A stretch of 64,000 nucleotides of DNA from Emiliania huxleyi CCMP1516 (lineage: Eukaryota): NCBI RefSeq assembly GCF_000372725.1, contig NW_005201851.1, positions 123,953 to 187,952 on the forward strand, read 5' to 3'. The position numbers and the translations under genes are program-made. The notes beneath the pieces are model-generated. The model searched no databases, was not told the origin of the DNA, and saw only the letters and a list, made by a program, of their open reading frames with translations. The stretch's first letter is position 1, and every line of letters starts with the position of its first letter. Positions 16,200 through 45,000 of this stretch are shown in pieces.

Positions 16200-19100
16200 A
16201 TGGCTAAAGCCGTATCCGTGCAGCGTGCGCTACGCAGCTCTATGCTCCTGGGGCGGATAAGCGGCGCCACGCAAGGCGTGGGGCAGCGGCGCCGCCTCCC
16301 CCCCGGCCGGATCGGCGGCAGCCGAGGCGCCGCCCCCCTCCGCGCCGCCTCCCTCCGCACTGCCTGCCCCCGCGACGCCGCCTGCCGCCTCGCCGACGCC
16401 CCCCCCGGCGAGGAACTCCTCGCCACCAGCCTCCGCCTGCTCCGCCGCGCGCCTCGCTAGCCGCGCAGTCACCTCGTCAAGCTGCGCCAGGGCCGCGACC
16501 CTCGCCTCCGCCGTCTCCCCCAGCGCCGCACCCGCCTCCGCAGCCGCCGCCTCCGCAGCCCCATCGGCCGCCGTCAGAGCGGCGAGGCGAGCGGCGGCGA
16601 CTTGCGGGGCGGCGGCCTGCGGGGCGGCGGCCTGCGCCGACGCCACCCCCGCCCTCGCCTCCGCCGCCGCTGCCGCCGCCGCCGCCCTCGCGCGCAAGTC
16701 CGCGACCGCAAGCCCCTCGAGGGTCGAGTCGCCCTGCCGCGCCGCCAGCAGTCCGGCGTCGGCGAGTCGCAGGCGCCTCGTTGGTAATCACGCATAGTTA
16801 GCCCTCCACACAGACTGTGCGCTCAGACGGCGTCCGGCGAGACGCAAACGCCTCTCCAGCGTCGCGCGCTCGTCGCCCGACGCGCCGACCGCCGCGCGGG
16901 CGAGGTTGTCGCGCACCCGCTGCAACCGCGCGCTCGTCATGCCCCGCCGGTTGAGCGCCTGCTCTTGGACACGAGCGAGACTCAGCAGTCACAAACCAGC
17001 TCCAGCCCGCCGTGGCACGAAGGTTGAGCGCTCCTGTGATGGCTTACGAACGCGTCACGAGTCCATCATACAGCTCGCCATGCCCGGCGGGCAATGCGCC
17101 TCGTTGAGACGCGTCCCCTCCGCGAGCAGAGCGGCCTATTCACCGCCGCGAGCGTGAAGAGACGCCGTTCACACCCTCCCCGCCCGGCCACCTGCGAGAG
17201 CAAAAGAGGCCGACACAGAAGCCGCCTCCACCGTGGCTGGCGGGGAGTCTGCCCGCCTGTTCACACCGAAGCTGTGAAGAGCCGCCGTTCACACACAAGA
17301 CTGCGTCGTGCAGCGCGGAGAGCTCGGCCGCCCCAACGCCGGCGACTCCGCGAACCGCTGCTCGGCCGCTCGCGGCGGCGGCGGCGTTGCGAACGGCGGC
17401 TGCGGCTGCGGCTGCGGCGGCTGCTGCGGCTGCTGCGGCTGCGGTGGCTGCGGCGGCTGCTGCGGCTGCTGCGGCTGCTGCTGCGGCTGCTGCTGCGGCT
17501 GCGGTGGCTGCGGCGGCTGCTGCGGCTGCTGCGGCTGCTGCTGCGGCTGCTGCTGCGGCTGCTGCTGCGGCCGCGGCGGCCGGGGCGGCAAGGGTTCCTG
17601 AGGAAGCTGGCCGTTGTCGTCGTCCCGCAAGTACTCGGCGCGAAAGTCAGCCTATGGGACAGGTCCGTGAAGGGGAGCTCCCCGAGGAGGCTCGAGCGGC
17701 TGCCCCGCGGGTACTCGGTGCGGAAGTCGGCCCAGAGCAGCAGCATGGCGACCAGCGGCGCGACGGCGAGCTCCGCGGCGAGGCGCGCCTATTCACAGCA
17801 GCTGCTGTGAAGAGGCGCCGTTCACAGCGGAGGGACGGCGAGCTCCGCGGCGAGGCGCGCCGCCGCTCGCAGCGTCAGCAGCGGGTAGAGGAGGGCACGC
17901 CCTCCGCCTCCTCCGCCTCCTCCGCCTCCTCCGCCTCCTCCGCCCCCGCCCCCTTGGCGCGCGCCGGTGCCGAGCCGGTGGCGCAGCGCGCACAAGAGGG
18001 AGACGGCGAGGGCAGAGAGGGCGAAGACGCCGAGCAGGAGCAGCGGGAGGGGGAGCGCGTCCTCCGACAGGAGCCTGTTCCTTCATTACACACCGTTCAA
18101 CAGCAGTGATGGGCGGTGCGGCACAACCGTCCGACAAGCGCCTGTCCACTCAAAACGAGCAGTCAAGAACTGGCTAACGGTGGTGCCGCACAGCATCCTC
18201 CGACAGGCGCCGCGAAGTCGCCCGCCCCACCGCCGCCAGCAGCGCACCGATGCTGCCGGGCGGCGGCGGCGCGGCGGGGTTCGCGAGCAGTGCGTGGCCG
18301 ATGTCATATGAGGCGAGCGCGCCTAGAAGTAGTCCGTCTTGATGAAGGAGTCACTCCTCGATTAGCTGTCCCCCCGAGGTCGTATGAGGCGAGCGCGCCG
18401 CCGTCGTAGAGCACGAGCGCCGTCGGCGCGGCGTCGGGGCCGGAGCCTGCCACCGCAGGCAGCAGCAGCATCGCGAGGGGCTCGGCGCCTGTGCGGATGA
18501 GACGGAAGGGGTGCATCTCGGCTGTGCCTCTCGCTGCACCTCGGCTGCCTCTCTGCTACGTTCTGCTGTCTCTCTGCTGCCTCTCTGCTGCCTCTCTGCT
18601 GCCTCTCTGCTGCCTCTCTGCTGCCTCTCTGCTGCCTCTCTGCTGCCTCTCTGCTGCCTCTCTGCTGCCTCTCGGCTGCCTCTCGGCTGCATCTCGGCTA
18701 AGCCTCGCCCGCCAGCGCCTCCACCGCCGGCAGAATCGCCGTCTGCAGCCGCCAGGAGTCTGACGCGTCGACCTCGGCGGCCGCCCCCTCCCCCTCCGCC
18801 CCGCCCCCGCCCCCCGCCCCCGCCCCCTCTCTCCCCAGACCCGCCTCCGCCTCCCTTGCGCCGCCCTCCTCCTCCGCCAGCCTCGCCTCCTCCTCCTCCT
18901 CCACCTCCGCCTCCACCTCCGCCTCCTCCGCCGCCGCCTCCTCCGCCGCCTCCGCCTCCTCCTCCGCCTCCTCCCCCCCCTCCTCCGCCTCCTCCGCCTT
19001 CTCCGCCTCCGCCGCCTCCGCCTCCTCCGCCTCTGCCTCCAGCCCGAACCACCACAGCGCCCAGCGGCGCCACCTCCTCCACGCCCGCCCCACGAGCCGA

Positions 19101-22100
19101 GCGTGCCTAACGGCAACAGCGACAAGACATCGCGATCAGCGAGCGATCAACAGCCTGCCGCCGCGAGCCGCGAGCGCCTGAGGACAATGGCGGTGATTCG
19201 TTCTCAACGATGACCCATTCACACCCGCCCCCAGCGAGCCGGCCGAGCCTAGGCGAGACGCGAGCCGCATAAAAAAAGAAAACGCGGCCGTGCCAAGCAC
19301 CACCGCGCGGGGGATTTGGGAGCGCCAAGTGGCGCCAGACGCCGCGGCACGCGCCGCCGCGCCGCCCTCCCCCCTCGCCATCGCCTCCTCGAGCGCCGCC
19401 GCCGCGGCGAACGCGGCGGAGGCGGCGGAGGCGTTGAGCGAGAGGAGGAGGACCGCGTGCGGCGAGAGCAGCAGCGCGATCTGCGGCGCGGCCCCTACAG
19501 TCATGCCCCGTCAGCCGCTCCAGCCCGGCTGCGGACTCCTCACTCTGCCGCGGTCTGCGGGGCGGCTCCGTGGGCGAGCAGCGTGAAGGAGGAGGCGGCG
19601 ACGCCTAAGGGAAGAGAGCCGTGAAACAAAGGCCGGGCGACGGCAGCGTGAAGGAGGAGGCGGCGACGCCGTCGATCTCGAGCTCGAGCATACCCATGCC
19701 TGTAGGGAAGGCTGCGAGGCGGTTCAGGGAAGGCTCCTCCTCAATCTCCAGCCCGAGCATGCCCGTGCCGGTTAGCGTGGCCACGCTGTGACCGTGCGCG
19801 ACGGCGACGTGCTCGCCTGTTCACAGCCGGCAGGTGCGAAGCGGCGCCGTTCACACCGCGCGTGTGCCTCGGCCGTATCTCGCGCGTATCTCGGCTACAT
19901 CTCGCCGTCGGCAGACCCCCCCACGAGAGGACTCGCCGCCCCCGCCGCCTCGCCCGCCGCGCCGCCTCGCGAGCGCTGCGCCGCAGTTGTCGTCACCGCG
20001 CGGAGGACCCAGCCCCGCACCTGTTCACAGCTAGAGGTGTGAAGAGACGCTGTTCACAGCCGTCGTGGAGGACCCAGCCCCGCACCGGTTCGCAAGCCGG
20101 GAGCAGGCGGCGGGCTGGCGGCAGGCACCTGCGATGGTGAGAACATGGACACCTCCAAAGGCCCAGGGTTCCACAGCTAACTGTGGACAGCGTCATCTCT
20201 TCTAACTTCTCTCGATCCTACAAAGGGCGGGGACAGTACAGTATGGGATGTCTGTTCAGCAACAGCTCAGGCCCGTGCGGCTGTCGCGTGAGGCGGTGTG
20301 CGGTTGGCACGTGCCATTGGAGGTGTCTAGGAAGTGTCTAGGAAGTGTCTAGGAAGTGTCTAGGAAGTGTCTAGGAGGTGTCTAGGAGGTGTCTAGGAGG
20401 TGTCTAGGAAGTGTCTAGGAAGTGTCTAGGAAGTGTCTAGGAAGTGTCTAGGAAGTGTCCAGGCAGGCACCATGCAGGCGGCGCCCTGGCCCCTGGAGAG
20501 AGAAGGCGGACACGCAGACCCTCATCGCCGCCTGACTAGTTCATGGAGCAACACTCACTCACTGAGCCGCGGGAGTCACCCCTCGCCTCCCCTCCCCGCC
20601 GCCGTCGCCGTCGCCGCCGCCCGCGGGCGCAAGAACTTCGCCGACGAGAACCGACGCGTCCATCCGCCGCCGCCGCCGGTCCATCTCCACGCGCGCGGTC
20701 TCGAGGCCTGTCCAGCGGCGCGGGGGGGTGAGCGCAGCAGCCCCAAGCTCCACGCCGCAGCTCCACTCTCGAGGTCTCGCCTCCTCCTCCCCGCCCTCGC
20801 CGCGCGCTTGCCTCGAGACCCCCCTCGCCGCGAAGTTTAGGTTGTTGGTGTGGTCTTGCCGTCTTTTTTTTCTGTAGCCTAAGTTACTGTGCCCGGCTTT
20901 GTCAATTTTCATTTGACGTTTGTTCTGTTTGGGGCNNNNNNNNNNNNNNNNNNNNNNNNNNNNNNNNNNNNNNNNNNNNNNNNNNNNNNNNNNNNNNNNN
21001 NNNNNNNNNNNNNNNNNNNNNNNNNNNNNNNNNNNNNNNNNNNNNNNNNNNNNNNNNNNNNNNNNNNNNNNNNNNNNNNNNNNNNNNNNNNNNNNNNNNN
21101 NNNNNNNNNNNNNNNNNNNNNNNNNNNNNNNNNNNNNNNNNNNNNNNNNNNNNNNNNNNNNNNNNNNNNNNNNNNNNNNNNNNNNNNNNNNNNNNNNNNN
21201 NNNNNNNNNNNNNNNNNNNNNNNNNNNNNNNNNNNNNNNNNNNNNNNNNNNNNNNNNNNNNNNNNNNNNNNNNNNNNNNNNNNNNNNNNNNNNNNNNNNN
21301 NNNNNNNNNNNNNNNNNNNNNNNNNNNNNNNNNNNNNNNNNNNNNNNNNNNNNNNNNNNNNNNNNNNNNNNNNNNNNNNNNNNNNNNNNNNNNNNNNNNN
21401 NNNNNNNNNNNNNNNNNNNNNNNNNNNNNNNNNNNNNNNNNNNNNNNNNNNNNNNNNNNNNNNNNNNNNNNNNNNNNNNNNNNNNNNNNNNNNNNNNNNN
21501 NNNNNNNNNNNNNNNNNNNNNNNNNNNNNNNNNNNNNNNNNNNNNNNNNNNNNNNNNNNNNNNNNNNNNNNNNNNNNNNNNNNNNNNNNNNNNNNNNNNN
21601 NNNNNNNNNNNNNNNNNNNNNNNNNNNNNNNNNNNNNNNNNNNNNNNNNNNNNNNNNNNNNNNNNNNNNNNNNNNNNNNNNNNNNNNNNNNNNNNNNNNN
21701 NNNNNNNNNNNNAAGGATTGTGAGCAGCACTCCTCGCAATAGTAGCATCTTTGGGATTGTGAGCCCTTACGCTCGCAATCCTACATCTTCTAGGACTAAG
21801 AGCAGCTCCGCTCACAATGTGACTGGTGACGCCTACGACTACTACCAGCGCGCTCACAATCCGAGCAAGCTCTAGGGTTGCGAGCAGCTTAGCTCACAAT
21901 CCTAGCAACATGCCTTCGATTTCGAGCAAAAGCGCTCGCAATCCTAGAACTTTCGCCGATTGCGAGCGACAACGCCCACAGTCCTACGACTTCTAGGATT
22001 GCGAGCGGGTCCCCTCGCAATCGGTGCGATCACTGTTTGGATTGTGAGGAGACCCTCCCGGCGCGCTCACTCACAAGCGCTCGCGGCTGGAGCGATTGGG

Positions 22101-24074
22101 AGCGCCCTCTGTGCGAGGGCTATAGCAGTCCTTGGATCTTTGGTACGATGGTGAGCGCAGCCGCTCATAGTCCTACACGGATGGAGGACACGCGCAACGG
22201 CGGCTACTGCTCCGACGACATGCAGCGCGAGCTCAGTGACCGGGGAGCCGCGCGCCAGCAGCAGGTCCTCGTGCGGCGGCGGCGCCTAAGAATCGGCACA
22301 AGTCCTCTCGCGCCATCTCGCGCCATCTCGCGCCATCTCGCGCCATCTCGCCCCATCTCGCCCCATCTCGCGCCATCTCCACCGCCGCCTCCTCGCCGCG
22401 GGCAACGCTTTGGCGCACGGCGCCTCATCTCGGCCATTCTCGCGCCCTCGGCATGGCTCGGCCTCGGAAGCATCTCGGCCAGATCTCGGCAGATCTCGGC
22501 CAGATCTCGGCTAGATCTCGGCTAGATCTCGCCGTGGCGGCCGAGGCAGCGCCAGCCGCCGCACACGGCGAGGCGTGCGGCGTGAAGATGCGGACAGCCC
22601 AATCCTCCGCCTCGCCGCGCGAGACGCGGTAGGCAGCGCCTGCCGGAGAAGAGTATGATACATACACCACAATACTTCTCCTTCTTCTTCTTCTTATATC
22701 ATTCTTATATCATTCATATGTTGCAGTGTGGTCGGCGCCGGTGAGGGATCCGTCGGCGGCGAAGGAGAGCAGCTCTCCTGCGAGTGAAGGAGACACACAC
22801 GGGTGTTATAAGACAGTCCATTAAGGTAACCTTAAGGTACGTATTAGGCGGAGGAGGAGAGCAGCTCTCCTGGCCCGGGCAGCTCGTCACTCCAGAGCAG
22901 CGACCAGCCGCCGCCACGCAAGTACGGCAAGCCGGAGGGCGCAGCGAGGGCGGCGCGCGCCTGTTGATTGGTGAGTGGCCGAGAGGAATGACCATTCAAC
23001 ACACAATTGGTGGGTGCACAGCGAAGGCGGCGCGCGCCTGTTGGTTGATGGAGTCTGTAGAGAAACAACCGTCCTCGGTATCTCGTCAGTATTGGCCATC
23101 GGCAGGCAGGCGCAGCGAGGGCGGCGCGCGCCTGATGATCACGATGTGGACAGCCGACTAACAACCGCTCAGCAGACACTGGCAGGCGGGCGCAGCGAGG
23201 GCGAGGGCTCGCGCCTCGCCCGCCAGCAGTCTCAACAGCGCCCCGTCGCCGCCCTCGCCCGCCGTCCGCAGCAGCGCGTCTCGCAGCGGCGGCCTGGAGG
23301 GCGGAGGAGCGAAGGAGGAGGCCGGACGGGCCCAGACCTGCGAACGCTGATCGTTAGGGTGGGTGTTGAGTGGTTATGGCTGGGGGCCGGCTGAGATGAG
23401 GCAGAGAGGAGCCGAGAGGAGGCAGAGAGGAGCCGAGAGGAAGCCGAGAGGAGTCGAGATGAGCCGAGAGGAGCCGAGAGGAGCCGAGAGGAGCCGAGAG
23501 GAGTCGAGATGAGCCGAGAGGAGGCCGAGAGGAGCCGAGAGGAGGCCGAGAGGAGCCGAGAGGAGACGAGAGGAGCCGAGAGGAGCCGAGCCCAGACCTC
23601 GACACGGCCGACCAGAGGCTCTGCCGCCTCCGCCCGCCCTCGCCTCGCTCCCAGGCTCCCTCGACCGCCTCCCTTCTCCGCGCGCGCCGCCGCCGCCACC
23701 CTCCGCCGCAGGAGGGTGACGGTGAGCATGTCGACTCCGCCGCAGGCCGGAGCGTGGCAGAGGGCCAAGTGTGGCGTAGCGGACGCATCGAGCGAAGAGA
23801 GGGCCGCGGCCTTGTCGTCGCGGCCGCCACCGCCACCGCCGCTGTCGTCGGCATCGCAGCTGTGCGCCGCTGGCGCTGCGTCCCGACCCTCTTCGGAAGG
23901 GCCAAGCAGCCACTCTGCGAGCAGCGGCGCCAGAGGCGGGATCGCGACGCTGTCCAGCGGAGGGTCGTGAGGCAGCCCGATGGCAATGAGTGTGGCCGGC
24001 GTGCTGACGCCGCCGAGCCACGGCAGGCAGACAACGACGATACAGAGGGCGAGGAAGAGCAGGCGGAGGATCAT
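16200..24074 (-). CDS. Large multi-exon hypothetical membrane/secreted protein; may be two genes; spans an assembly gap
   Basis: Signal-like start MILRLLFLALCIVVVCLPW at 24074 and hydrophobic exon LPLLLLGVFALSALAVSLLC near 18000. Many same-strand GT/GC-AG introns with satellites. No family recognised. Confidence 0.35.
21713..22176. repeat. Array of ~39-41 bp degenerate palindromic units (consensus TAGGATTGYGAGC-N6-GCTCRCAATCCTA)
   Basis: At least 8 consecutive units plus degenerate ones; begins at the gap edge. Confidence 0.8.
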
Positions 24075-24207
24075 CCGCGGGTCAGAGTACCGGAACCGCA
24101 AATTCTTTTCTTTGTTTTAGGTGTGTTGTTGGCAAATCAAGACACAATCTTTTCTGGGTGGGGTAGGTGCTCTACAATTGCACCGAGTTTCATTTCTTTT
24201 CCTCGCG

Positions 24208-25677
24208 ATGTCCACCCTGCCGCGCCGCCGCTCGCGCCGCCTCGCCCCCGCCTCCACCGCCGCCGCCTCTTCAGACACGCCGCCGCCCGCCCGCCTCCTC
24301 GATCTCCCCACGGACCTCCTCCTGCGCGTCCTCTCCCGCTGCGACCCCGCCGACATCGCTCGCGTCGCGGCCGTCTCGCTGCTCTTTCACGCCTCGCTTG
24401 CGGTGGAGGCCATCCGCTTGTGGGCGCAAGAGCGCGGCTTCGAGCTGCCGGCGCTGCCAGTGGGCGAGAGCTGCGCCGTGCGGTGGCTGTGTCTCGCTGC
24501 GTTGCTGCGCGAGTCCAACCCGCCGGCGAGGGCGGCAGCAGGTGAGCATCACAGCCTCTTCATTGACGGCGAGGGGCGGCTCTCGTCGTGCGGCAAGATG
24601 TCCTGGATGTCAGGGCTGCTTGGCCACGGTGAGGGTGTGGCGCAGCTCAACACGCCGACCCGCCTCCCCTCGACGTTGGGCGACGAGCGCGCCGTGAGTG
24701 TGTCGGTTGGATACAGCCACAGCCTCGCCCTCACCGCCGCCGGCAGCGTCTGGAGCTGGGGCAGTGGACACGGTGGCAAGCTGGGCCACGGAGACCAGCA
24801 GGACCGGCCGCAGCCGAAGAAGGTTGAGGCCTTTGCGGGTCGGCGCGTCGTCGCCGTGTTGGCTGGTACCGCTCACAGCCTCGCCATCACCGCCGACGGA
24901 GCCGTCTGGAGCTGGGGCTATGGCTACAATGGCAAGCTGGGCCACGGCGACGAGCAGCACCAGCTGCTGCCAAAGAAGGTCGAGGCCTTGGCGGGGCAGC
25001 GTGTCGTCGCTGTGACGGCTGGAGACCACCACAGCCTCGCCCTCACCGCCGGCGGTGCAGTGTGGAGCTGGGGCTCGGGAGCCGATGGCCAGTTAGGCCA
25101 CGGCGACCGGCAGCGCCAGCTGCTGCCAAAGAAGTTCGAGGCGTTGGCTGGCCAGCGCTTCGTCGCTGTGTCGGCCGGAGGCACCCACTGCCTTGCCCTC
25201 ACTGCCGACGGAGCCTTCTGGAGCTGGGGCTATGGAGCCTATGGCCGGCTGGGCCACGGCGACACGCAGACCCAGCTGCTGCCAAAGAAGATCGTGGCGT
25301 TCGCAGGGCGGCGCATCGTCGCTTTGTCGGCTGGAGAGCACCACAGTATCGCCCTCACCGCCGACGGCGCCGTCTGGAGCTGGGGCTATGGACGCTTTGG
25401 CCAGCTGGGCCACGGCGACCAGCAGAACCAGCTGCTGCCAAAGAAGATCGAGGCCTTTGCTGGGCGGCGCGTCGTCGCTGTGTCGGCTGGAGCCGGGTTC
25501 GGCCTCGCCCTCACCGCCGACAGCGCCGTCTTTACCTGGGGCCAGGGCGACCACGCCTGCCTAGGCCACGGAGATGACCTGTCGGACCAGCTGCTGCCCA
25601 AGAAGATCGAGGCGTGGGGCGTGGTCGCCGGGGCTGTGAGGCGAAGGGCAGGTGATCCACCGTGCCCAGGGTCGTGA
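24208..25677 (+). CDS. F-box + RCC1-repeat beta-propeller protein, paralog 1, intronless
   Basis: LLDLPTDLLLRVLSRCDPADIARVAAVS F-box-like motif followed by 7 RCC1 repeats (VSAGxxHSLALTADGAVWSWGxGxxGxLGHGD). Confidence 0.9.
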   Translation: MSTLPRRRSRRLAPASTAAASSDTPPPARLLDLPTDLLLRVLSRCDPADIARVAAVSLLFHASLAVEAIRLWAQERGFELPALPVGESCAVRWLCLAALLRESNPPARAAAGEHHSLFIDGEGRLSSCGKMSWMSGLLGHGEGVAQLNTPTRLPSTLGDERAVSVSVGYSHSLALTAAGSVWSWGSGHGGKLGHGDQQDRPQPKKVEAFAGRRVVAVLAGTAHSLAITADGAVWSWGYGYNGKLGHGDEQHQLLPKKVEALAGQRVVAVTAGDHHSLALTAGGAVWSWGSGADGQLGHGDRQRQLLPKKFEALAGQRFVAVSAGGTHCLALTADGAFWSWGYGAYGRLGHGDTQTQLLPKKIVAFAGRRIVALSAGEHHSIALTADGAVWSWGYGRFGQLGHGDQQNQLLPKKIEAFAGRRVVAVSAGAGFGLALTADSAVFTWGQGDHACLGHGDDLSDQLLPKKIEAWGVVAGAVRRRAGDPPCPGS

Positions 25678-25771
25678 GAGGGAACCTTGAGAGGGAGCTT
25701 GGTTGTAAAATTCTTATTAATTCTAATTCTTGTAAAGTTCTAATTCTTTTTTATTAAATTCTTTTAAACGC

Positions 25772-26910: not shown

Positions 26911-29900
26911 ATGAGCTTATCCGACGTGCGCATCCCGCTTCGCGCCGCGCGCCGCTGCCCGCGCACTCCACACGCCGCCGCGGCCGCGCGCGCCCGCACG
27001 ACCGCCGCTCCGCTCACGCCGCTCCCGCATGTGCCTGCAGCTGCTGTCGGACGAGTGGGTGCTTCAGTGGGTGGGCGGGCTGTTCGTGCTGCAGTTTGGC
27101 TGGATGGCCCTCCTCTACGTCGTCCCGTCGCCCATGTCGTCCGATGTCGGCATGGCGGCTCACCAGCTGACGGCGGCGGTGCCGTTTGCGTACGCCGCCT
27201 ACCACGGCACGCGGCTGTGGTACTTTGACGAGCAGCACGCGGCGCTGGGCGCCGACGCGCGCGGCCGCCTCTACGCCGCCTCCGAGGACGCCTTCTCCCT
27301 CGCTCGCTTCATGTTTGGGATGCAGGTCTGCTCGAGCCCCTTCCCGCGGAACCTTCCCGGAACCTTCCCTGAGCCTTCATGTTTGGGATTCAGGTCCGCC
27401 GGCCCGCTGTAGCACTCCCGGGCCTTCCCGGAACCTTCCCGGAGCCCGCCGAGACGCCCCCGAGACGCCTCCAGCTCCCCTTCCCGAGACGGCTCCCGGC
27501 GCGGTGCCTCGCTCCGGTAGGTCTTCGACCTGTTGGTGACCCTGATCGTACCGTCGCTGCGCAAGGCGCGCACCGAGGAGGACCCCCCTTCCAAACACGG
27601 ACCCTCCCTCCCCGGGGACTCGCCCCGGAGCGATCGCAGAGCGGTCGCCTCCCGCCCGCTCCGCGCCCAACACCGGATTCCTGTGGCCAGTGTGAAGCTG
27701 TGACGGTGTGAAGCTATGAGTGCCTCGGCTGGCTCTGAGTGCGTGTGTCTCCAGCAGGCGGAGCACTTGGTCCACCACGGGATGACCCTCCACCTCATAG
27801 TACCCGAACCCATCCCCTACCCCCACGGTACCGAACCCACAGGCGGAGCACTTGGTCCACCACGGGATGACCCTCCACCTCATAGTACCCGAACCCATCC
27901 CCTACCCCCACGGTACCGAACCCACAGGCGGAGCACTTGGTCCACCACGGGATGACCCTCCTCACCGCGCTGTGTGGCCTCTCGGGCCCGCTCCTCCTCT
28001 CCCCGCGGCTGCTGTGAACGGCGTCTCCTCACACCTGCAGCTGTGAACAGGCACCCTCCAGGAGGAGGAGGGCGTCTCGCTGTGAACGGCGTCTCCTCAC
28101 ACCTCCAGCTGTGAACAGGCACCCTCCAGGAGGAGGAGGGCGTCTCGCTGTGAACGGCGTCTCTTCACACCTCCAGCTGTGAACAGGCCCGTTTCTCATG
28201 TACCAGGCGCCTCATGAGTAGTTCGGACTCAGTTCGGACTCAAAGAGCGATGGAGACAGCGCCAAAGGCCGGCCACACACGTCCCGCCCCTCCTGCGCCA
28301 GGCCGCATTCTTCTTCGGCTTCGTCGAGGTCTCGTCGCTGCCGCTCGTGTTTGTTGACCTCTTCCGCCAGTTCCCGCGGCTGCACGAGGGGTCGCCCGCA
28401 GGCACACGAGATTGCACGAGATTGCACGAGATTGCACGAGATTGCACGAGGGGTCGCCCGCAGGCACACGAGATTGCACGAGATTGCACGAGATTGCACG
28501 AGATTGCACGAGGGCTCGCCCGCAGGCACACGAGATTGCACGAGATTGCACGAGATTGCACGAGATTGCACGAGGGGTCGCCCGCAGGCACACGAGATTG
28601 CACGAGATTGCACGAGATTGCACGAGATTGCACGAGGGGTCGCCCGCAGGCACACGAGATTGCACGAGATTGCACGAGATTGCACGAGATTGCACGAGGG
28701 GTCGCCCGCAGGCACACGAGATTGCACGAGATTGCACGAGATTGCACGAGATTGCACGAGGGGTCGCCCGCAGGCACACTCGCTCACCCACTCGCACCGG
28801 GCCTCGCACTTGGAATGCCGTGCCAGCTCCTGTCGCGTAGACGTGGAGACGCGAGGGACCAGCCCGGCCCTTGCCCCACACCACCTCCACCGTGTGTGGG
28901 GAGAAGTTTACCTCACCTTACCGCCCGCAGACCACGAGACGGCCCGAACCCTAGCTCTAACCGCAACCCTGACCCCAACCCTAGCCCTAACCCTAGCTCT
29001 AACCCTAGCCCTAACCCCAAACCTAACCCTGACCCCAACCCCAACCCTAACCCTGACCGCAACCCTGACCCCAGCCCTGACCCTCGCCCGCAGGCCATTC
29101 GGTCAACGAGACGGTGCGGGTCGCCTTCGCCCTCTCGTTCCTCCTGATTCGGTGCGTCCTCCGGCCGAGAGGCAGCAGAGAGGCAGCAGAGAGGCAGCAG
29201 AGAGGCAGCAGAGAGGCAGCAGAGAGGCAGCAGAGAGGCGGCCGAGATGCAGCAGAGAGGCAGCAGAGAGGCAGCAGAGAGGCAGCAGAGAGGCAGCAGA
29301 GAGGCAGCAGAGAGGCAGCAGAGAGGCAGCAGGGAGGCAGCCGGGAGGCAGCAGGGAGGTAGCCGGGAGGTAGCCGGGAGGTAGCAGCTCGGTCGCCGCT
29401 GGCCGAGAAGCACCGGCGGTTGCTGCAGCAAGCCGAGAGCGTGCGTGCGTGGCGTGGCACGCCTCGTGCTAGGTGCAACCTCGTGCAATCTCGTGCAATC
29501 TCGTGCAATCTCTGCTAGGTGCGTCCTCTGGCCGCTGGCGGTGCTGCAGCTGCTGCGTGACCTGTACGCGGTGTGGGCGGCGGGCGAACTGGAGGGGCAG
29601 CTGCAGATGGCTACCTTCTGCGTCACCTGCTCGGCGCTCCCCGCCCACACCGCGCTCCCCGCCACCCCGCCACCGCCCCCACCGCCCCCTCCACCGCCGC
29701 CCCCACCGCCGCCCCCACTGCCGCGTTGCCGCCGCCGTGTCCGCTTCGCCCTACACGCCGCCGGCCTTTCCTCGCCGCCGCCCTCGCCGCCGCCCCTCGC
29801 CGCCGCCCCTCGCCGCTGCCAGCTCTGCTGGGGGCGAGAGAGCATTGGCCGATCGTCGGCCAACCACGGCGCGCCCTTAGGTGCTAACCTTCCTGCAGCT

Positions 29901-32376: not shown

Positions 32377-32424
<48 letters not shown>

Positions 32425-37567: not shown

Positions 37568-37743
37568 GGATCGGCGGTTACACCTCCACGTCAGAGTGTG
37601 GTTGGTGAGAGCTTTTTGGCTATACCATAGACCGTACACCCGGACTCACAGGTGCCCCACGGCACATTCATGATCATGCATCATGTGCAAGGCGTCCACA
37701 CGATACTTTACTATCGACGATTCGATAGTTACCCCGCGACCTC

Positions 37744-39174
37744 TCAATCCCGCGACCACACCTCGATCTTCTTGGGCAGCAGCTGGTTCGACACGTCCCC
37801 TCCGTGGCCTAGGCAGCCGTAGCGGCCCTCGCCCCAGCTCCAGACAGCTCCGTCGGCGGTGGTGGCGAGATTGTACGCGAGCGCAGCAGACACAGCGACG
37901 ACGCGCTGCCCAGCAAAGGCCTCGACCTTCTTCGGCAGCAGCTGGCGCTGCCGGTCGCCGTGGCCCAGCTGGCCATCTTCGCCTAGGCCCCAGCTCCAGA
38001 CGGCGCCCTCGGCGGTGAGGGCGAGGCTGTGAAGACCTCCAGCCGCCACAGCGACGACGCGCTGGCCAGCCAAGGCCTCGATCTTCTTGGGCTGCCACTG
38101 GCGCTGCTCGTCGCCGTGGCCCAGCTTGCCAAAGGCTCCCCAGCCCCAGCTCCAGAAGGCGCCGTCGGCGGTGAGGGCGAGGCTGTAACCGCGCCCCGCC
38201 GACACAGTGACGACGTGCTGCCCTGCAAAGGCCTCGACCTTCTTCGGCAGCAGCCGGCTCTGCTGGTTTTGCTCGTCGCCGTGGCCCAGCTCGCCCAAGC
38301 CTCCACAACCCCAGCTCCAGACGGCGCCGTCGGCGGTGAGGGCGAGGATGTGGCCGCTTCCAGCCGACACAGCGACGACGCGCTGGTCAGCCAAAGCCTC
38401 GATCTTCTTCGGCAGCAGCTGGTCCTGCTCGTCGCCGTGGCCCAACTTGCCAGAGTTTCCATTGCCCCAGCTCCAGACAGCTCCGTCGGCGGTGATGGCG
38501 AGGCCGTGCATCTCTCCCGCCGACACAGCGACAACGCGCTGGCCAGCAAAGGTCTCAATCTTCTTCGGCAGCAGCTGGTCCTGAGTGTCGCCGTGGCCTA
38601 GCCGGCCAGAGCCTCCACTGCCCCAGCTCCAAACGGCGCCGCTGCCGGTGAGGGCGAGGCTGTGGAATGCTCCAACCGACACGCTCACGACGCGCTCACC
38701 GCTCAGCGTCGACGTTAGGCGGGTCGGCGTGTTGAGCCGCGTCACGCCATCGCCGTGGCCGAGTACTCCCGGCGTCCAGCTCTCAGCCGAGCCGCACGAC
38801 GAGAGCCGCCCCTGGCCGTCGATGAAGAGGCTGTGCTGAAAGCTTGCCGCCACCCTCGCCGGCGGGTTGGACTCGGACAGCAGCGCAGCGAAGCACAGCC
38901 ACCGCACGGCGCAGACCTCGCCCTCTGGCAGCGCCGGCAGCTCGAAGCCGCGCTCTTGCGCCCACAAGCGGATGGCCTCCACCGCAAGCGAGGCGTGAAA
39001 GAGCAGCGAGACGGCCGCGACGCGAGCGATGTTGGCGGGGTCGCAGCGAGAGAGGGCGCGCACGAGGAGCTCCGTGGGAAGGTCGAGGAGGCGGGCGGGC
39101 GGCGGCGTGTCTGGCGAGCGGGCGGTGGAGACGGAGGCGAGGCGGCGCGAGCGGCGGCGCGGTGGGGTGGACAT
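37744..39174 (-). CDS. F-box + RCC1-repeat protein, paralog 2
   Basis: Same N-terminal F-box-like motif and 7 RCC1 repeats, 476 aa. Confidence 0.9.
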   Translation of the reverse strand: MSTPPRRRSRRLASVSTARSPDTPPPARLLDLPTELLVRALSRCDPANIARVAAVSLLFHASLAVEAIRLWAQERGFELPALPEGEVCAVRWLCFAALLSESNPPARVAASFQHSLFIDGQGRLSSCGSAESWTPGVLGHGDGVTRLNTPTRLTSTLSGERVVSVSVGAFHSLALTGSGAVWSWGSGGSGRLGHGDTQDQLLPKKIETFAGQRVVAVSAGEMHGLAITADGAVWSWGNGNSGKLGHGDEQDQLLPKKIEALADQRVVAVSAGSGHILALTADGAVWSWGCGGLGELGHGDEQNQQSRLLPKKVEAFAGQHVVTVSAGRGYSLALTADGAFWSWGWGAFGKLGHGDEQRQWQPKKIEALAGQRVVAVAAGGLHSLALTAEGAVWSWGLGEDGQLGHGDRQRQLLPKKVEAFAGQRVVAVSAALAYNLATTADGAVWSWGEGRYGCLGHGGDVSNQLLPKKIEVWSRD

Positions 39175-39557
39175 CGCGAGAAAAAGAAAATTTGTGAGAA
39201 AAAGAATTCAAACGCGATGTCGTGCGAGAAAAAGAAATTCGCGCGGGCTCGAGAATTTACTTATCGATGCCCGCCGCCGTTCGGAACGCCGGCGTGGAGC
39301 CTTGTTCGCAGCCGGGGTCCCTGGCGCCCTTCCCCTTGAGTCTTCATGAGAGCCTCGCCTGCGCGCAACGTGCTTGATGCGTTTCGCCGTCTCGAGTCCC
39401 GAGGCCCGAGTCGCGTTGGTGAGAGCTTTTCCGCTAGTACCACGCAGCCCGACTCACACAGGCTCGGGCAGAGGTGGAGCCCCACAATTGTTAATGTGCA
39501 AAAGGGTCAAGGCCGCGTCCACACGATACCGTCCCCGCGACCTCTCAATCGGCATTG

Positions 39558-40660
39558 TCAATCCCGCGACCACACCTCGATCTTCTTGGGCAGCAGCTGG
39601 CGCGATAGGTCCTCTCCGTGGCCTAGGCAGCTGCCGTCGCCCCCGCCCCAGGCAAAGATGGCGCCGTCAGTGGTGATGGCGAGCCTTTGCTCGACTCCCA
39701 CCGACGTAGCGACGACGCGCCGCCCCGTCAACGCCTCAATCTTCTTCGGCTGCAGCTGGTTCTGCTGATCGCCGTGGCCCAACCGACCGTTGCCACCGCG
39801 GCCCCAGCTCCAGACGGCGCCGTCGGCAGTGATGGCGAGGCTGTGGGCGTCTCCAGCCGACACAGCGACGACGCGCTGGCCAGCCAAGGCCTCGATCTTC
39901 TTGGGCAGCAGCTGGTCCTGCTCGTCGCCGTGGCCCAGCTTGCCATCTTCGCCAAGGCCCCAGCTCCAGGCGGCTCCGTTGGCGGTGAGGGCGAGGCAGT
40001 GCCCGACTCCAGCCGACACTGCGACGACGCACCGACCTGCAAAGGCCTCGACCTTCTTGGGCAGCGGCTGGTCCTGCTGGTCGCCGTGGCCCAACATGCC
40101 CCAGTATCCACCGCCCCAGCTCCAGACGCTGCCGTCGGCGGTGATGGCGAGGCTGTGAAAACCTCCAGCCGACACGGCAACGACGCGCTGGCCAGCAACG
40201 GTTGCCACCTCCGTGGGCAGCAGCTGGCTCTGCTCGTCGCCATGGCCCAATCGACCAAAGCCTCCCCGGCCCCAGCTCCAGACAGCTCCGTCGGCGGTGA
40301 GGGCGAGGCTGTGCTGCCACCCAGCCGACACGGAGACGACGCGCAATTTAGCAAACCCCTCGATCTTCTTGGGTTGCCACTCGTGCAGCTCGACGCCATG
40401 GCCCAACAGGCCGTGGCGTCCACTGCCCCAGCTCCAGACAGCGCCGTCGGCGGTGAGGGCGAGGCTGTGGCCGGTTCCAACCGACACGCTCATGGCGCGC
40501 TCGCCGCCCAGCGTCGACGGGAGGCGGGTCGGCGTGTTGAGCCGCGTCACGCCCTCGCCGTGGCCGAGAAGGACTGGGTTGTAGAACGGCGAAGAAAGCA
40601 GCCCTCCTGAGAAGTATGTGCTACCCGCAATCACAAGGGCCCTCGCCGCGGCGGGCGGCC
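39558..40660 (-). pseudogene. RCC1-repeat paralog 3, 5'-truncated (no F-box)
   Basis: Open RCC1 repeats with the same C-terminus (KIEVWSRD) and 3' flank as paralog 2. The N-terminus is replaced by unrelated DNA, including a diverged RLE-element 3' UTR at ~40733-40815. Confidence 0.7.
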
Positions 40661-41188
40661 CGCGTGCAGACAGCTTGCGGCTGTTTGCGTCACCATGGTC
40701 GCCCCCGCGTGACACTTCCGTTTTTCTTTCGGTGCTAAGTGCATTGCCGCTCTTAACGGAGTCGCTTAGGCGGCTCCGGTGGTGTGCCGGTGATAGTACT
40801 AGCACGCGCCAGTTCGCACCTGTGTCGAGCCTAAGAAAACAGACACGCCAAACGAGGGATGGGACGAGGACAGGGTCCCCACCTGCACGAGCAGGATTTT
40901 GGAAGGACGATCAGGGGGACAGGTGGGGCTCTCCTGCTCCTGACAAGGGACACGACAGGCTCGCAGCGCGGTGCGCGGTGGACTCCCACATCCACTGGCG
41001 GTCTCATCTCAGTCTAGCGACCTGCCTCCAGCTTGTCGCTGGCAGTCTCTCCTACCACAGGCACACTGACACAGGGGTGGCAGGGGCGGCGGCACGAGTC
41101 TCCCACATACTATGCGGGCCTCACTAGAGGTGCGGCCTGTGCGTGTCCTCGCCCTTGAGGGGGGAGGGGAAGGGGCTGTGTGTCTGTG

Positions 41189-41191
<3 letters not shown>

Positions 41192-41277
<86 letters not shown>

Positions 41278-41292
41278 GTGCGTGTGCGTGTG
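41192..41292. repeat. (GT)n microsatellite
   Basis: Direct reading. Others: (CA)n 54175-54326, (GA)n 46621-46678, (CT)n 63653-63697. Confidence 0.95.
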
Positions 41293-42093
41293 CGAGCCGC
41301 CCTGAACGCCACGAGCGCGCCGCGAGCGCCATAGCGCCGGCGAGCGCCGTCGGACCGCCACCCAAAAGTGGAGGTACATTAGGAGCCGCAGCCGGCCTGC
41401 TCTATCAGCCCCGCAGCCGCGGTGGCGCGACCGGACCGCGGTCGCTCCAGGCGCCTTTTGGCCCCGGTTCGAATCGCGGTTGGCGCGCGCCCTCGCGGAG
41501 CGACGCGTGGCGCGCGACGCGCGCGCGTGCGCGTGCGCGCCCAGCCGAGCCCTAGGCCGTATGCCGTCTGCCGTCTGCCGTCTGCCGTCGGCCGTCGGCC
41601 GTCGGCCGTCGGCCGTCGGCCGCCGCCGCCGCCGTAGCGGCGGCGAGCGCTCGCCTTTTGCGCGACGCGCAGTGTGGACGCGCGCCGCCCAGCGCCGGAC
41701 GTGCCGGAGCCGGTCCGGCGCGCGCGCGGGCGGCCAGCGCCTGTAAACAGACAGCTGCCGCCCACACGTCGAGCCTGTCTGCTGCGGGTTTAAATTCTTT
41801 CGGCAGCACGTGTTGGCGTGACGCTGTGTGTGTCGCTCACGCTCGAGGAGCGATTCCGCTTCGGCTCCGGGCGCTTCGACGACATCAATGGCTTGTACGT
41901 GGACGACGCCGTCCCGAGCTGTACGTGAACGACTGGGCAGCGCCAGACGGCGAGGACTTTTAAAGAAAGAAAGAAAGAAAACAGACAACCCAAGGGAGGG
42001 ATGGGAGGAGACATCCTGAGCGAACTCGAGGCCGCAATTTTTCTTTCGGCAGCACGTTGGCGTGACGCTGCCGCCGGCGTTGGCAAGCCCGCG

Positions 42094-45000
42094 ATGTGGT
42101 CGCTCACGCTCGGTGCGGCGCTCGCCAACGTCGGCTGCTCCGTCTCGCTAGTGCTCGTCAACAAGGCTCCGGAAGATACAGCCCCGGCCTGACCCTTCCC
42201 GCTCCACCTCCGCCGCCATCCGCCGTCCTCCGCCGCCAGCCGCGAAGCCGTGGCACACCTCCGACCCCGCAGGCGGTCTTCTCGGCTGGCTTCAACTTCC
42301 CCATGTCGCTCACCTTCCTCCACTTTGCCTTTACCGTCGCGTTCTACCGCCTGCTCGCAGCGTGCGGCGCCTTTGAGCCTCAGTCGCTGCCGCACGCAGA
42401 GGCGTTCAAGGTTGCCGGGTTTGGCGTCGGAAGCATCGGCTTCATGAACATCTCGCTCCACCTCAACTCGGTCGGCTTCTACCAGATCACGAAGCTCGCC
42501 ATAGTGCCGTGCACGCTGCTCGCACAGGCACCTTTTTAAGCCCTCGCCAGCCGCCTCTCGGCCGCACCTCGGCCGCACCTCGGCCGCCCACCTCGACGGC
42601 CTCTCGGCTCCACCTCGCGCAGGCGCTCCTGCACGACGTGCACGCCTCGCGCCGTGTGAAGCTCTCGCTCCTCCTCCTCCTCCTCGGCCTCGCCGTCGCC
42701 ACCGTCTCGGACGTGAGACACTTCCTAGACACTTCCTAGACGCGTCCTAGACACCGTCTCGGACGTGAGACACTTCCTAGACACTTCCTAGACGCGTCCT
42801 AGACACCGTCTCGGACGTGAGACACTTCCTAGACACTTCCTAGACGCGTCCTAGACACCGTCTCGGACGTGAGACACTTCCTAGACACTTCCTAGACGCG
42901 TCCTAGACACCGTCTCGGACGTGAGACACTTCCTAGACACTTCCTAGACGCGTCCTAGACACCGTCTCGGACGTGAGACACTTCCTAGACACTTCCTAGA
43001 CGCGTCCTAGACACCGTCTCGGACGTGTGCAGCTCCCCCTAGAAGCGAGTGTGCATTCTTGCTCCTCAGCGCAATCTCGTCTTCCGCCCGCTGACGTCGG
43101 GTGTACTCAGCACGCAGGTCCAGCTCAATGCGCCCGGCCTCGTCCTCGGCTTGCTCGCCGTCGCCACCACCACAATCTTCCAGATCTGGCAAGGCTCCAA
43201 GCAAAAGGCGACACTTCCTAGACACTCCCTAGACACTTCCTAGACACCACCGTCTTCCAGATCTGGCAAGGCTCCAAGCAAACGGTGCTCGAGCTGCCTC
43301 GCCACGCCGCCGTGTCGGCCGGCTGATTCTTTCTTTTCATCCATCCGTCGTCAGTCGTAGGAGCTCGAGCTGTCCGCGACGCAGCTGCAGGCGGCCGTCG
43401 CCAGCAGTGGCGGCGTCACCTCTCCACCGCTTTGCATCGCCTCACAGCCTTTTCTTTCACAGGCGGCCGTGGCGATTTGGCAGGTGCCGCAGGCGGTCGC
43501 TCGCCCGCTTGTTCACAGCTCGAGGTGTGAAGAGACGCTGTTCACAGGTGCCGCAGGCGCTCGCGGCGGCGATTGCGCTGGAGAACCTCTGCGCAGGCCC
43601 GCCTCGCCTTGAGAGATTGCACGAGATTGCACGAGATTGCACGAGATTGCACGAGATTGCACGAGATTGCACGAGGTTGAGCAGCGATGTGTGCAGCCGC
43701 TTCAGAGGCCCGGCCATACGAACTGCTGTCTGTGGCGATGCCTCTCCCTGAGAACGCACACACCGCCTCGTGTGGTCACGCCCCGTGTATCCCGCGAGTG
43801 CGTGTGCCCCGTCGCCCGGTGCGAGGGACGTGTCACACACACACACTCACTGATGACGGACTGGCTGACTGAGAGGAGGCCGTGCTCAAGGGCTCCCCCC
43901 TGGACGAGTGTGTGATGAGTGGCTCGCGTCTTGAAGGGGCGTACGGCCTGGCTCCCTAGTACGGACGCACGTGACCCCGCCCACACCTCTGCGCAGGTTT
44001 GCCTCCCGCACTCCGCTCGGAGGAGCCAGGAGAGTGCCGGACGGCGGTCGGGTTCGCCCAGCAAGCCGCGAACGGCGGCGGCGGCGACGGGGGCGGCGGC
44101 GCGCGCACACTGGCGCTGGTGGTGCTGACCTGCTTCGTCGCCCTTGGGACGAACGTCTCCTCGTTTTGCCTCATCGGCCGCACGTCGGCAATCACCTTCC
44201 AGGTGGTCGGGCGACCTGCCTCGTATCTCCGCACGTCTCCCTCGCATCTCTCCGGAATTCTCCGCCCCCAAGGATTCGGTACTTAGGCGGCGGGGGATCT
44301 GGATTCGGTACTTTAGGTGGTCGGGCATGCCAAGACCTGCCTCGTCCTCGCGGGCGGGTTTTTGCTCTGGCCTCCCGCGGACACGTCGCACTTGCCCACG
44401 CAGCTCGTCGGCGTCTCCGTCGCCGTCCTCGGCTGCGTCCTCTATTTCTTTTTTAACCTGTGTTTCTTTTTTAGGCGTCTCGGTCGCCGTCCTCGGCTGC
44501 GTGCTCTACGGCCATCTCAAGCTGAGCGAGGCTACCGGCCGGAGAGACTTGTGCGACCGCCTCTGCCCCGCGCCGCTGCTGTGGGTCGCGACAGACCCCC
44601 CGCCGAGGTTCGAGATACAACCCGAGATACAGCCGAGATGCAGCTGGAGATACAGCCGAGATGCAGCCCGAGATACAGCCCGAGATACAGCCGAGATACA
44701 GCCCGAGATACAGCCGAGACACAGCGGGGATGCAGCCGAGATGCAGCCGATCTAGCCGAGATCCGGACGAGATCCTGCCGAGCTCCTGCCGAGCTCCTGC
44801 CGAGGCCCAGCTCGCATACAGCCGAGGTACGTACAGCCGCGGCTGCACCACCCCGTCCACACCTCCCCCCGCGAATCAGGTACGAGCCGCTGCCTGCGTC
44901 GGGGGAGCTCATCCCGGCGGCGGAGCTGTCCGCGTCGGACGCCAAGGTGGCTTAATTATTCATGATTAATTAATAGCAATCTTAGTTCATTCAGCGGACC

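Follow-up and report, generated by a model that had tools for sequence, protein, structure and literature searches.

The window analyzed here, which is the whole stretch of 64,000 nucleotides from Emiliania huxleyi CCMP1516, contains two genes with short introns and 11 copies of a 39-base cassette, full, diverged and partial copies taken together. After removal of eight introns, the first gene possessed a 410-codon open frame over all 1231 bases, while the longest unspliced frame had 175 codons. Similarly, removal of six introns from the second gene gave a 230-codon open frame over all 694 bases. Paralogues within the window were alignable only in the RCC1 domain. The window was also rich in tandem repeats.

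Five full copies of the cassette matched the 39-base consensus with 0–3 mismatches, compared with 0.00 expected from 100 shuffles. Three of them were on the plus strand (28012-28050, 28080-28118 and 28148-28186) and two on the minus strand (20021-20059 and 43509-43547). A 17-base core with two or fewer mismatches was matched 8 times in the window, versus 0.04 times expected. Short-word BLAST identified diverged copies at 17154-17173, 17273-17293, 17806-17827 and 19817-19855 as well as partial copies at 53828-53848 and 60292-60308. The former partial copy is on the plus strand, where it matches 20 of the first 21 bases and ends with CAG when extended to 53828-53866. The latter, also on the plus strand, is a 3' fragment in which 16 of 17 bases match and which is preceded by a C run. 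The diverged copy at 19817-19856 on the minus strand is 40 bases long, ends with CAG and is directly followed by an open frame; the predicted intron that contains it has short tandem repeats in its upstream part. Every copy listed in the original prediction was present. Two of the positions given there were off by 1–2 bases, and these copies are actually located at 17136-17174 and 17789-17827.

The CTG start, the CAG end and the internal GTGAA/TTCAC dyads that had been described for the cassette can be read directly from its sequence. The fold stability of these dyads was not unusual, with z ranging from +0.38 to -1.11. The termini of the cassette are 10-base direct repeats, with CTGTGAAC(AG) at both ends. 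No terminal inverted repeats of standard form were found in the cassette, of which the inverted arm is internal. The three full copies on the plus strand form a tandem array at 28012-28186 with a period of 68, 2.6 copies and 98% matches. Its unit consists of the 39-base cassette and a 29-base spacer, and both spacers are identical and have GC at their start.

Splicing was assessed with assembled RNA contigs from four runs rather than with raw reads, and one of these runs, X2, was only guessed to be RNA. The contigs joined exons exactly across four cassette introns, three with the cassette in sense and one with the cassette reversed. In all four, the register was GY...AG and the acceptor was the terminal AG of the cassette. 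The segment spliced out began with the GC or GT that opens the upstream duplicate, ran through the cassette AG and thus comprised exactly one duplicate plus the cassette. The 75-base GC-AG introns at 17136-17210 and 17257-17331, both on the minus strand, have diverged cassettes at their 3' ends (17136-17174, with an ATAG end, and 17257-17295, respectively), and their joints, 17132>17208 and 17252>17328, were found in 4 of 4 runs. The 72-base GC-AG intron at 17789-17860 on the minus strand starts with 33–35 bases copied from the beginning of the downstream exon and then has the cassette at 17789-17827 with an ATAG end. Its repeat is exact over 28 bases and identical at 33 of 35. The joint across this intron was found in one contig of run X2, which read through the repeat, and removal of the intron preserves the 410-codon frame. 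The reversed case is the 64-base GT-AG intron at 43484-43547 in the gene on the plus strand, in which the reversed cassette at 43509-43547 with a TTCACAG end comes after 25 bases (43484-43508) that copy the beginning of the downstream exon. The repeat flanking position 43509 is exact over 12–15 bases and identical at 18 of 25 overall. The joint 43398>43545 was found in runs X7 and X2. Ten contig letters left unplaced by this joint were exactly those predicted from a 21-base micro-exon at 43463-43483, and removal of the intron preserves the 230-codon frame. In addition, a 65-base GT-AG intron is predicted at 20021-20085 on the minus strand, where a 26-base copy of the start of the downstream exon (20060-20085) precedes the cassette at 20021-20059 and the exonic copy lies at 19995-20020. 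This repeat is exact over 19–20 bases and identical at 21 of 22 at its start. In the cassette introns, the repeat accounts for the 5' half, including the donor. The claim that the cassette supplies an acceptor in either orientation was borne out by the three sense introns and the reversed one, and its opposite use at 43547 by the joint 43398>43545.

Search results with a 21-base core motif identified at least 136 copies at 121 or more loci in marine metagenomes, while no match to this motif was found in viral contigs or in collections of prokaryote genomes. For the metagenome copies listed, column conservation was 72–100% inside the 39 bases and 30–53% outside, except for one G on each side. 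The loci, numbering at least 121, shared the cassette alone, and five locus pairs overlapped otherwise. Cassette arrays with a spacing of 65–71 also recurred, with nine neighbour pairs among the loci listed. Moreover, the hairpin part was inverted in 5 of 134 copies among those listed, which is a lead toward a MITE and not a match to one.

Flanking duplications were analyzed for 98 of the copies; 38 were set aside, of which 25 had ends outside the pattern and 13 had a short flank. An exact flank repeat of at least nine bases was found in 86 of the 98. With the 99th percentile of shuffled flank pairs as the cut-off, a locus-specific duplication abutted both cassette ends in 73, and the remaining 25 had no significant abutting duplication. 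Exon-derived direct repeats, as proposed originally, are the rule among the metagenome copies listed, at a length of ~29 bases that is much above what had been implied. The lengths of these 73 duplications ranged from 20 to 39 bases with a mode of 28–29, and their median identity was 0.88. Seven were perfect, pointing to recent local events and lending indirect support to a recent mobility of the cassette. Of the 73 duplicates, 67 had G as their first base; 38 started with GC and 21 with GT (59 together), and the base before the duplicate was G in 42 of 46. The orientation of 59 of the 73 fitted sense, and at most three fitted reverse alone, which is about chance level. Reversed use of the cassette is real and rare. 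When one duplicate and the cassette were removed, the codon phase, as judged by third-position G+C, was in register at 48 of 68 loci (p = 4e-10) and at 20 of the 24 loci with a clear signal. The added length was divisible by three in just 19 of 65 loci.

The build of a downstream-exon copy plus an insert was shared by 11 of the 14 RNA-supported introns of the window, and only four of them contained this cassette. For instance, the 75-base GC-AG intron at 16777-16851 on the minus strand repeats the beginning of the downstream exon (14 of 20 matches) and has an unrelated insert of ~47 bases, and the 76-base GC-AG intron at 18323-18398 on the same strand has a repeat identical at 23 of 25 bases and an unrelated 51-base insert; both have RNA joints. 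On the plus strand, the 64-base GC-AG intron at 44411-44474, whose joint was found in run X2 only, has a repeat identical at 32 of 34 bases and an AT-rich insert of 30 bases. A 65-base GC-AG intron predicted at 19605-19669 on the minus strand also lacks the cassette and has a 28-base exact repeat and an insert of ~38 bases. The inserts of the introns without the cassette were mutually unrelated and mostly unique within the ~115 kb compared. That so many introns of the window share this build suggests that introns are gained by a common, active process.

The repeated cassette at the ends of spliced introns, each time after a copy of ~29 bases of the exon, suggests that the cassette is probably a tiny non-autonomous mobile element, an introner, which makes its own insertion a spliceable intron. 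No empty site, at which the cassette would be missing and its repeat single, was seen among the loci compared, so that its mobility is inferred. In this proposal, an enzyme would cut both strands at a G|GY...G|C site, with ~29 bases between the two nicks; joining of the cassette and filling of the gaps would then yield the duplication. The upstream duplicate would then serve as the donor and the 5' half of an intron of ~68 bases. The cassette would supply the acceptor and a putative branch site, TTCAC, located ~19 (sense) or ~32 (reverse) bases upstream of the AG. Unequal exchange between duplicates could produce tandem arrays such as that at 28012-28186. The mobile or templated filler of the original prediction is in keeping with the number of copies, their unrelated loci, their sharp 39-base borders and their locus-specific duplications. 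No autonomous partner element or enzyme was found for the cassette. The strong bias toward one orientation (59 sense and 3 reverse-only) counts against the introner, which offers no account of it.

A general repair process would also fit the unique inserts of the other introns of this build. If there were no dedicated transposition, staggered breaks in genes would be closed by fill-in and templated filler, of which the cassette would be the most copied, an origin similar to that proposed for Daphnia. Such repair is favored by the prevalence of introns that start with a downstream-exon copy, few of which have the cassette, by their unrelated and mostly unique inserts, and by the lack of inverted termini and of a partner element among our results. 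The neo-introns of Daphnia also have repeats shared by the intron end and the adjacent exon (PMC4202315). However, random capture of filler would be expected to leave ragged ends and to occur in both orientations, whereas all copies, at least 136 of them, have the same sharp 39-base borders, and one orientation with respect to the G|GY end strongly predominates. The narrow mode of 28–29 bases also differs from the 4–12 bases given in the portion of the Daphnia report compared (PMC4202315). The adjacent-exon repeat is present as in Daphnia, yet the filler here is a defined multi-copy cassette, and fillers are unique in other introns of the window. An origin by break repair is considered rather unlikely. 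The orientation bias would be explained if the cassette were a very small retroposed RNA, as under target-primed reverse transcription an asymmetric target receives its inserts in one orientation. A retroelement whose enzymes, a reverse transcriptase and an endonuclease, placed the second nick ~29 bases off would create a long duplication of fixed length, and long duplications are reportedly on record for site-specific retroelements, as in the R9 elements of rotifers. Priming might make use of the 10-base direct repeat at the termini. Nevertheless, the CAG directly abuts the duplicate without an A-rich or simple 3' tail, the two borders do not differ in sharpness and no 5' truncation series was seen, and one window copy is reversed while five of the metagenome copies listed have an inverted hairpin part, rendering retroposition quite improbable.

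The location of the cassette at intron 3' ends and its possession of TTCAC and CAG would also be expected if it were an immobile module, conserved as branch site and acceptor in a single old intron family and spread by gene or segment duplication in a genome rich in duplications and tandem repeats. This is contradicted by the flanks of the metagenome loci, which are unrelated except for the five overlapping pairs, and by the duplications, each of which matches its own downstream exon; perfect duplications also argue against it, and we regard it as very improbable. An ordinary minisatellite or low-complexity repeat unconnected to splicing would suit the 68-base array at one site and the tandem repeats of which the window is full. 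Most copies are single and dispersed, however, and the splicing of four copies at the cassette AG as well as the restoration of codon phase upon removal contradict such a repeat, whose probability is negligible.

The origin of new spliceosomal introns is a long-standing question, to which introners are the best current answer, while their insertion mechanisms are mostly unknown. If the cassette is an introner, it would rank with the smallest elements that generate introns, and its duplication would be the first of ~29 bases to become half of an intron in the parts of the introner literature compared (PMC9860276; PMC11282704; PMC12130899). On its own, an insert of 39 bases would probably be too short for splicing; the duplication brings the cassette intron to ~68 bases. 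Moreover, the duplicate pairs would provide a built-in clock for dating each intron. Among the loci listed, 38 of the 59 cassette introns with GY donors (64%) have GC donors, compared with 68% predicted from the C share of pyrimidines in the cassette loci listed and with the 56–65% reported for donors of E. huxleyi (PMC4028052). Thus, donors that are simply sampled from the duplicated coding sequence may explain the odd splice sites of E. huxleyi. A wider proposal, which we advance only tentatively, is that a haptophyte alga possesses an integration machinery, undescribed so far, that nicks ~29 bases apart and pastes DNAs of 30–50 bases, the cassette being the commonest, and that this machinery built a large share of the short introns of this alga. 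As the donors would come from duplicated G+C-rich coding sequence, this would also explain why most of its introns start with GC rather than GT.

Duplications by known DNA transposon superfamilies are several times shorter than that of the cassette. Similar to MITEs, the cassette is short, non-coding and multi-copy with target duplications at its flanks; its identity as a MITE was rejected given its lack of standard inverted termini, the duplication of ~29 bases, the lack of a partner among our search results and a size below the usual range. A SINE-like retroposon was also rejected, as the cassette has no 3' tail and both its borders are equally sharp. Cas1-Cas2 joins DNA of a fixed length of ~30–40 bases between two nicks separated by ~30 bases and thereby duplicates a repeat of about that length. 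The likeness of the cassette to this spacer integration is one of geometry only, as CRISPR is prokaryotic and uses one leader-proximal repeat, whereas the cassette occupies many eukaryotic coding sites. Nothing suggests that a Cas1-Cas2-related enzyme is behind the cassette. The neo-introns of Daphnia pulex arise at staggered double-strand breaks and are later lengthened by internal duplications (PMC4202315). Their repeats are 4–12 bases long with inserts of mostly unique origin in the portion of that report compared (PMC4202315), different from the ~29-base repeat and defined multi-copy insert of the cassette.

Introners are transposon-derived intron families of Micromonas, Aureococcus, Symbiodinium, Chrysochromulina and others (PMC9860276; PMC11282704). 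Those of E. huxleyi have already been tabulated, as unclassified families, in supplements, while the available portions of the main texts of both reports are silent on this species (PMC9860276; PMC12130899). Supplementary tables 5 and 6 of the former list 653 introners of five families in E. huxleyi CCMP1516, of which 82% are in genes; the mean length is given as 70 or 37 bases, and both GT and GC occur as donors (PMC9860276). Supplementary file 8 of the latter includes an E. huxleyi family of five copies, "Unknown", with "10bp terminal direct repeats", "co-opt 5' carry 3'" and a 70-base intron (PMC12130899). Compared by description, these tabulated introners fit the cassette, whose first 10 bases equal its last 10 in the metagenome consensus. 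The entries for their duplications and inverted repeats are "?", "N" or 2–4 bases, and the ~29-base duplication, the anatomy and the reverse use are not described in those tables. Similar to introners, the cassette is present in many near-identical copies at unrelated loci (11 in the window and at least 136 at no fewer than 121 metagenome loci), resides in introns of unrelated genes and is removed as spliceosomal introns, leaving the mRNA length unchanged, as indicated by the four introns spliced in contigs, the open frames and the codon phase at 48 of 68 loci. Similar to the introners of Symbiodinium, it carries one splice site, the 3' one, and co-opts the other from the target duplication (PMC9860276). 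Target duplications or terminal inverted repeats are present in part of the known introner families, and inverted repeats are not required of all (PMC9860276); the cassette has the duplication in 73 of 98 copies and lacks terminal inverted repeats. Published duplications are 3–9 bases long, with 3 in Micromonas, 3–5 in Amoebophrya and 4 in Symbiodinium and Chrysochromulina (PMC9860276). Different from the published introners compared, the cassette has a duplication of ~28–29 bases, beyond that range and nearly half of the intron, an element of just 39 bases, and direct rather than inverted termini. The cassette is best described as an introner-type element whose target duplication is unusually long and makes up the 5' half of an intron of ~68 bases.

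The 39-base consensus of the cassette, which starts with CTG and ends with CAG, was matched five times in the window with no more than 3 mismatches, three times on the + strand (28012–28050, 28080–28118, and 28148–28186) and twice on the − strand (20021–20059 and 43509–43547), versus none in 100 dinucleotide-preserving shuffles. Its 17-base core had 8 matches in the window versus 0.04 expected. In addition, short-word BLAST identified four diverged copies on the − strand (17136–17174, 17257–17295, 17789–17827, and 19817–19856) as well as partial cassettes on the + strand at 53828 and 60292, so that the copies named in the original prediction were all recovered. The three + strand copies form a tandem array with a period of 68 bases, in which each 39-base cassette is accompanied by a 29-base spacer. 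The predicted fold of the cassette was no better than those of shuffles, and no Rfam family was found across the whole window.

To the stretches 16000–18560 and 43030–44600, contigs assembled from RNA-Seq runs X1, X5, and X7, all from one study, and from run X2 of a second study, which is only presumed to be RNA, were aligned. On the first stretch, the joints 17132>17208 and 17252>17328 were found in contigs of all four runs, and further joints were 16773>16849, 16954>17096, 18072>18209, and 18306>18383. Sliding these joints within their ambiguity left a single GY-AG register for each, yielding six GC-AG introns, all on the − strand: 16777–16851, 16959–17099, 17136–17210, 17257–17331, 18075–18210, and 18323–18398. 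The last 39 bases of 17136–17210 and 17257–17331 are the cassette, whose final AG is the acceptor. Moreover, an X2 contig joined 17652 to 17825 with 20 letters in between that correspond to 17733–17752. By our own interpretation rather than the aligner output, and allowing for a 35-base repeat, this joint would represent splicing of both 17652–17731 and 17789–17860, the latter also ending with the AG of a cassette. Removal of the eight − strand introns produced a single frame of 410 codons across all 1231 bases, versus an unspliced maximum of 175.

The joints on the second stretch outlined a + strand gene with introns at 43208–43360, 43597–43996, 44203–44316, and 44411–44474. The two repeat copies of 44411–44474 differ at one position, where the sole contig across this intron (from X2) retains the base found in the upstream copy; variation between strains or an allele lacking the insertion could account for this. 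At the joint 43398>43545 (X7 and X2), 10 contig letters remained unplaced. A model with a 72-base intron (43391–43462), a 21-base exon (43463–43483), and a 64-base intron (43484–43547) predicts exactly 10 such letters, as 8 and 3 letters could be placed on either side. As the last 39 bases of 43484–43547 are the cassette in reverse orientation, the spliced introns include one that is terminated by a reversed copy, as had been proposed for position 43547. Removal of the six + strand introns left 230 codons open across all 694 bases. Very small exons lie between the short introns of both genes (43361–43390, 43463–43483, 17100–17135, and 17211–17256, which are 30, 21, 36, and 46 bases, respectively), suggesting dense intron invasion. 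Pfam searches with six individual host-gene exons returned nothing above threshold.

The introns supported by RNA start with a copy of the first 10–35 bases of the downstream exon. Over the first 20 bases of intron and downstream exon, the mean number of matching positions was 13.7 for the 14 RNA-supported introns and 7.4 for mismatched intron–exon pairs, and the 95th percentile of this control was exceeded by 11 of the 14. The three below this threshold were 17136–17210 (an old cassette intron with indels in its repeat), 43208–43360, and 43597–43996 (in which it is the end of the upstream exon that is repeated, at the 3′ end of the intron). GC donors were present in 12 of the 14 introns and the cassette in only 4. 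Thus, the build of a duplicate plus an insert extends to most introns examined in the window.

The 21-base core motif of the cassette matched at least 121 stretches of marine metagenomes but had no match in viral contigs or in 185,579 prokaryote genomes. These listed metagenome loci contained at least 136 cassette copies, in which column conservation was 72–100% inside the 39 bases versus 30–53% beyond them, except for a G directly on each side of the cassette (81–82%). Apart from five overlapping pairs, the listed loci had nothing else in common among themselves, and their similarity to the window was limited to the cassette and an 11-base repeat. Nine pairs of neighboring copies in these loci were 65–71 bases apart, the same arrangement as in the 68-base array of the window.

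For analysis of the flanks, 98 of the at least 136 copies were used; 25 whose ends fell outside the end pattern, mostly one-base end variants of which many still had visible repeats, and 13 with a flank shorter than 80 bases were left out. Among these listed matches, 86 of the 98 copies had an exact repeat of ≥9 bases in their flanks, and for 73 a repeat abutting both cassette ends exceeded the 99th percentile obtained with shuffled flank pairs, in agreement with the earlier claim that exon-derived repeats surround the cassette. These 73 duplications from the listed matches were 20–39 bases long with a mode of 28–29 and a median identity of 0.88, and 7 were perfect. The first base of the duplicate was G in 67 of the listed 73 (GC 38, GT 21, and GA 7), and the base before the duplicate was G in 42 of 46. 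At the 19 listed loci with both ends well defined, the duplicate ended with G in 14 and was followed by C in 13; since C and G are also the first and last bases of the cassette itself, respectively, the position of each border could be shifted outward by one base.

After one repeat and the cassette were removed, the third-position G+C phase was in register at 48 of 68 listed loci (chance one third, p = 4e-10) and at 20 of the 24 with a clear phase signal. The added length was a multiple of three at only 19 of 65 listed loci. Thus, the copies are located within coding sequence, from which they need to be removed exactly. A stop-codon test was uninformative, as 56 of 65 metagenome flanks were open when spliced and 55 and 51 were open when mis-spliced by 1 and 2 bases, respectively. 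A composition score for the coding strand, which called 24 sense, 14 opposite, and 27 unclear, was wrong on known exons and was dropped.

Of the 73 duplicates among the listed matches, 59 started with GY when read on the same strand as the cassette. Only the reverse orientation fitted for 3 of these 73 and both orientations for 13, close to the numbers expected by chance from base composition. Reverse use therefore does occur, one intron of the window having RNA support for it, but it is rare. One class of copies ('B') had been considered antisense; this was rejected, as most of them proved to be in sense orientation, with mismatches close to where the repeat begins. In 5 of 134 listed copies (L009, L016, L042, L086, and L095), the first part of the hairpin is inverted, with the 3′ end unchanged; flanking duplications are still present around them (27 bases in L009). 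Two other loci, L011 and L121, contain a longer repeat of ~375 bases, 84% alike between them, with three cassette-like pieces that include a hairpin core without the terminal AG. This repeat might point to the source of the cassette or to a longer relative.

Other repeats were also observed in the window, which is extremely rich in tandem repeats at 64% G+C. A second dispersed family of intronic inserts, found at 27755–27961 (insert 27792–27927), at positions 20–90 of metagenome locus L077, and on the reverse strand of L101 (first ~90 bases), has a C-rich unit of ~27 bases ending with ...GAACCCAC and often doubled. At 27755–27961, an 85-base unit comprising a 34-base exon-derived repeat and a 51-base insert is present in 2.4 copies at 100% identity and ends with CAG, followed by the exon copy. 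An 11-base unit forms arrays at 8439–8996, 20319–20463, 42700–43027, and 43210–43247 as well as in L016 (103–155), and contig depth over these units was enormous. At 43176–43282, three and a half such units lie within an insert of 47 bases that has an exact 30-base duplication on its flanks and that RNA contigs place inside the larger intron 43208–43360. Repeats of 156 bases (52 codons) occur in five stretches (24699–25613, 37831–38696, 39656–40487, 52215–52968, and 58539–59376); in 24699–25613, 304 codons without interruption encode an RCC1 repeat domain (six repeats; Pfam RCC1, E = 7e-90). Empty sites were sought via the RCC1 paralogues of the window and none was found, the genes aligning only within the repeat domain. 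Finally, there are interstitial telomere-like hexamer arrays at 28943–29084 (CCCTAA, ~24 units, 69% matches) and 51683–51734 (GTTAGG, ~9 units), and young tandem arrays at 54692–55553 (189-base unit, 4.6 copies, 99% matches) and 44920–45320 (74-base AT-rich unit, 5.4 copies, 97%).

The spliced introns, the sharp 39-base borders, and the locus-specific duplications uphold the original prediction of a mobile or templated filler that makes its own insertion spliceable. In the mechanism proposed, two nicks ~29 bases apart would be made at a G|GY...G|C site, the cassette would be joined in, and the gaps would be filled. The upstream duplicate would then provide the donor as well as filler that raises the intron to ~68 bases, and TTCAC of the cassette is a putative branch site, located upstream of the AG by ~19 bases in sense and ~32 in reverse orientation. 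Unequal exchange between the repeats could make the arrays grow. The sharp borders, the narrow length mode of the duplications, and the orientation bias speak for such a dedicated process and against repair of staggered breaks with templated filler DNA, which we regard as unlikely; the variety of inserts in the other introns of the same build, however, speaks for something more general, as such repair would be. Retroposition of a small RNA is even less probable. Penelope-like elements were rejected as a source of long duplications, their duplications being given as 8–10 bases (PMC3846280).

The cassette is an introner-type element and hence of a known kind. For E. huxleyi CCMP1516, supplement tables 5 and 6 of PMC9860276 list 653 elements in five families with a mean length of 70 or 37, and the supplement marks their duplications and inverted repeats '?' or 'N'. 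Supplement file 8 of PMC12130899 lists three E. huxleyi families, all unclassified or doubtful; one, with '10bp terminal direct repeats', a co-opted 5′ site, a carried 3′ site, and a 70-base intron, may be this cassette, the likeness being one of tabulated description and not of sequence. The main texts of both papers do not mention E. huxleyi. Duplications are given as 3–9 bases for introners (PMC9860276), 3–5 bases in a 2024 review (PMC11282704), and 4–12-base repeats for Daphnia neo-introns (PMC4202315). In the literature covered by the searches, no description of a ~29-base duplication, the cassette anatomy, or a link to GC donors was found; a 39-base core with a ~29-base duplication as the donor half of the intron is a geometry absent from the published sources examined. 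GC donors made up 64% of the cassette introns with GY donors at the listed metagenome loci versus 68% expected from composition, and 56–65% have been published for E. huxleyi (PMC4028052), suggesting a simple origin of the GC-AG introns of this alga. The window matches features published for this haptophyte, Emiliania (Gephyrocapsa) huxleyi: a majority of GC-AG introns, tabulated introners, and a G+C content of 64% versus ~64.5%.
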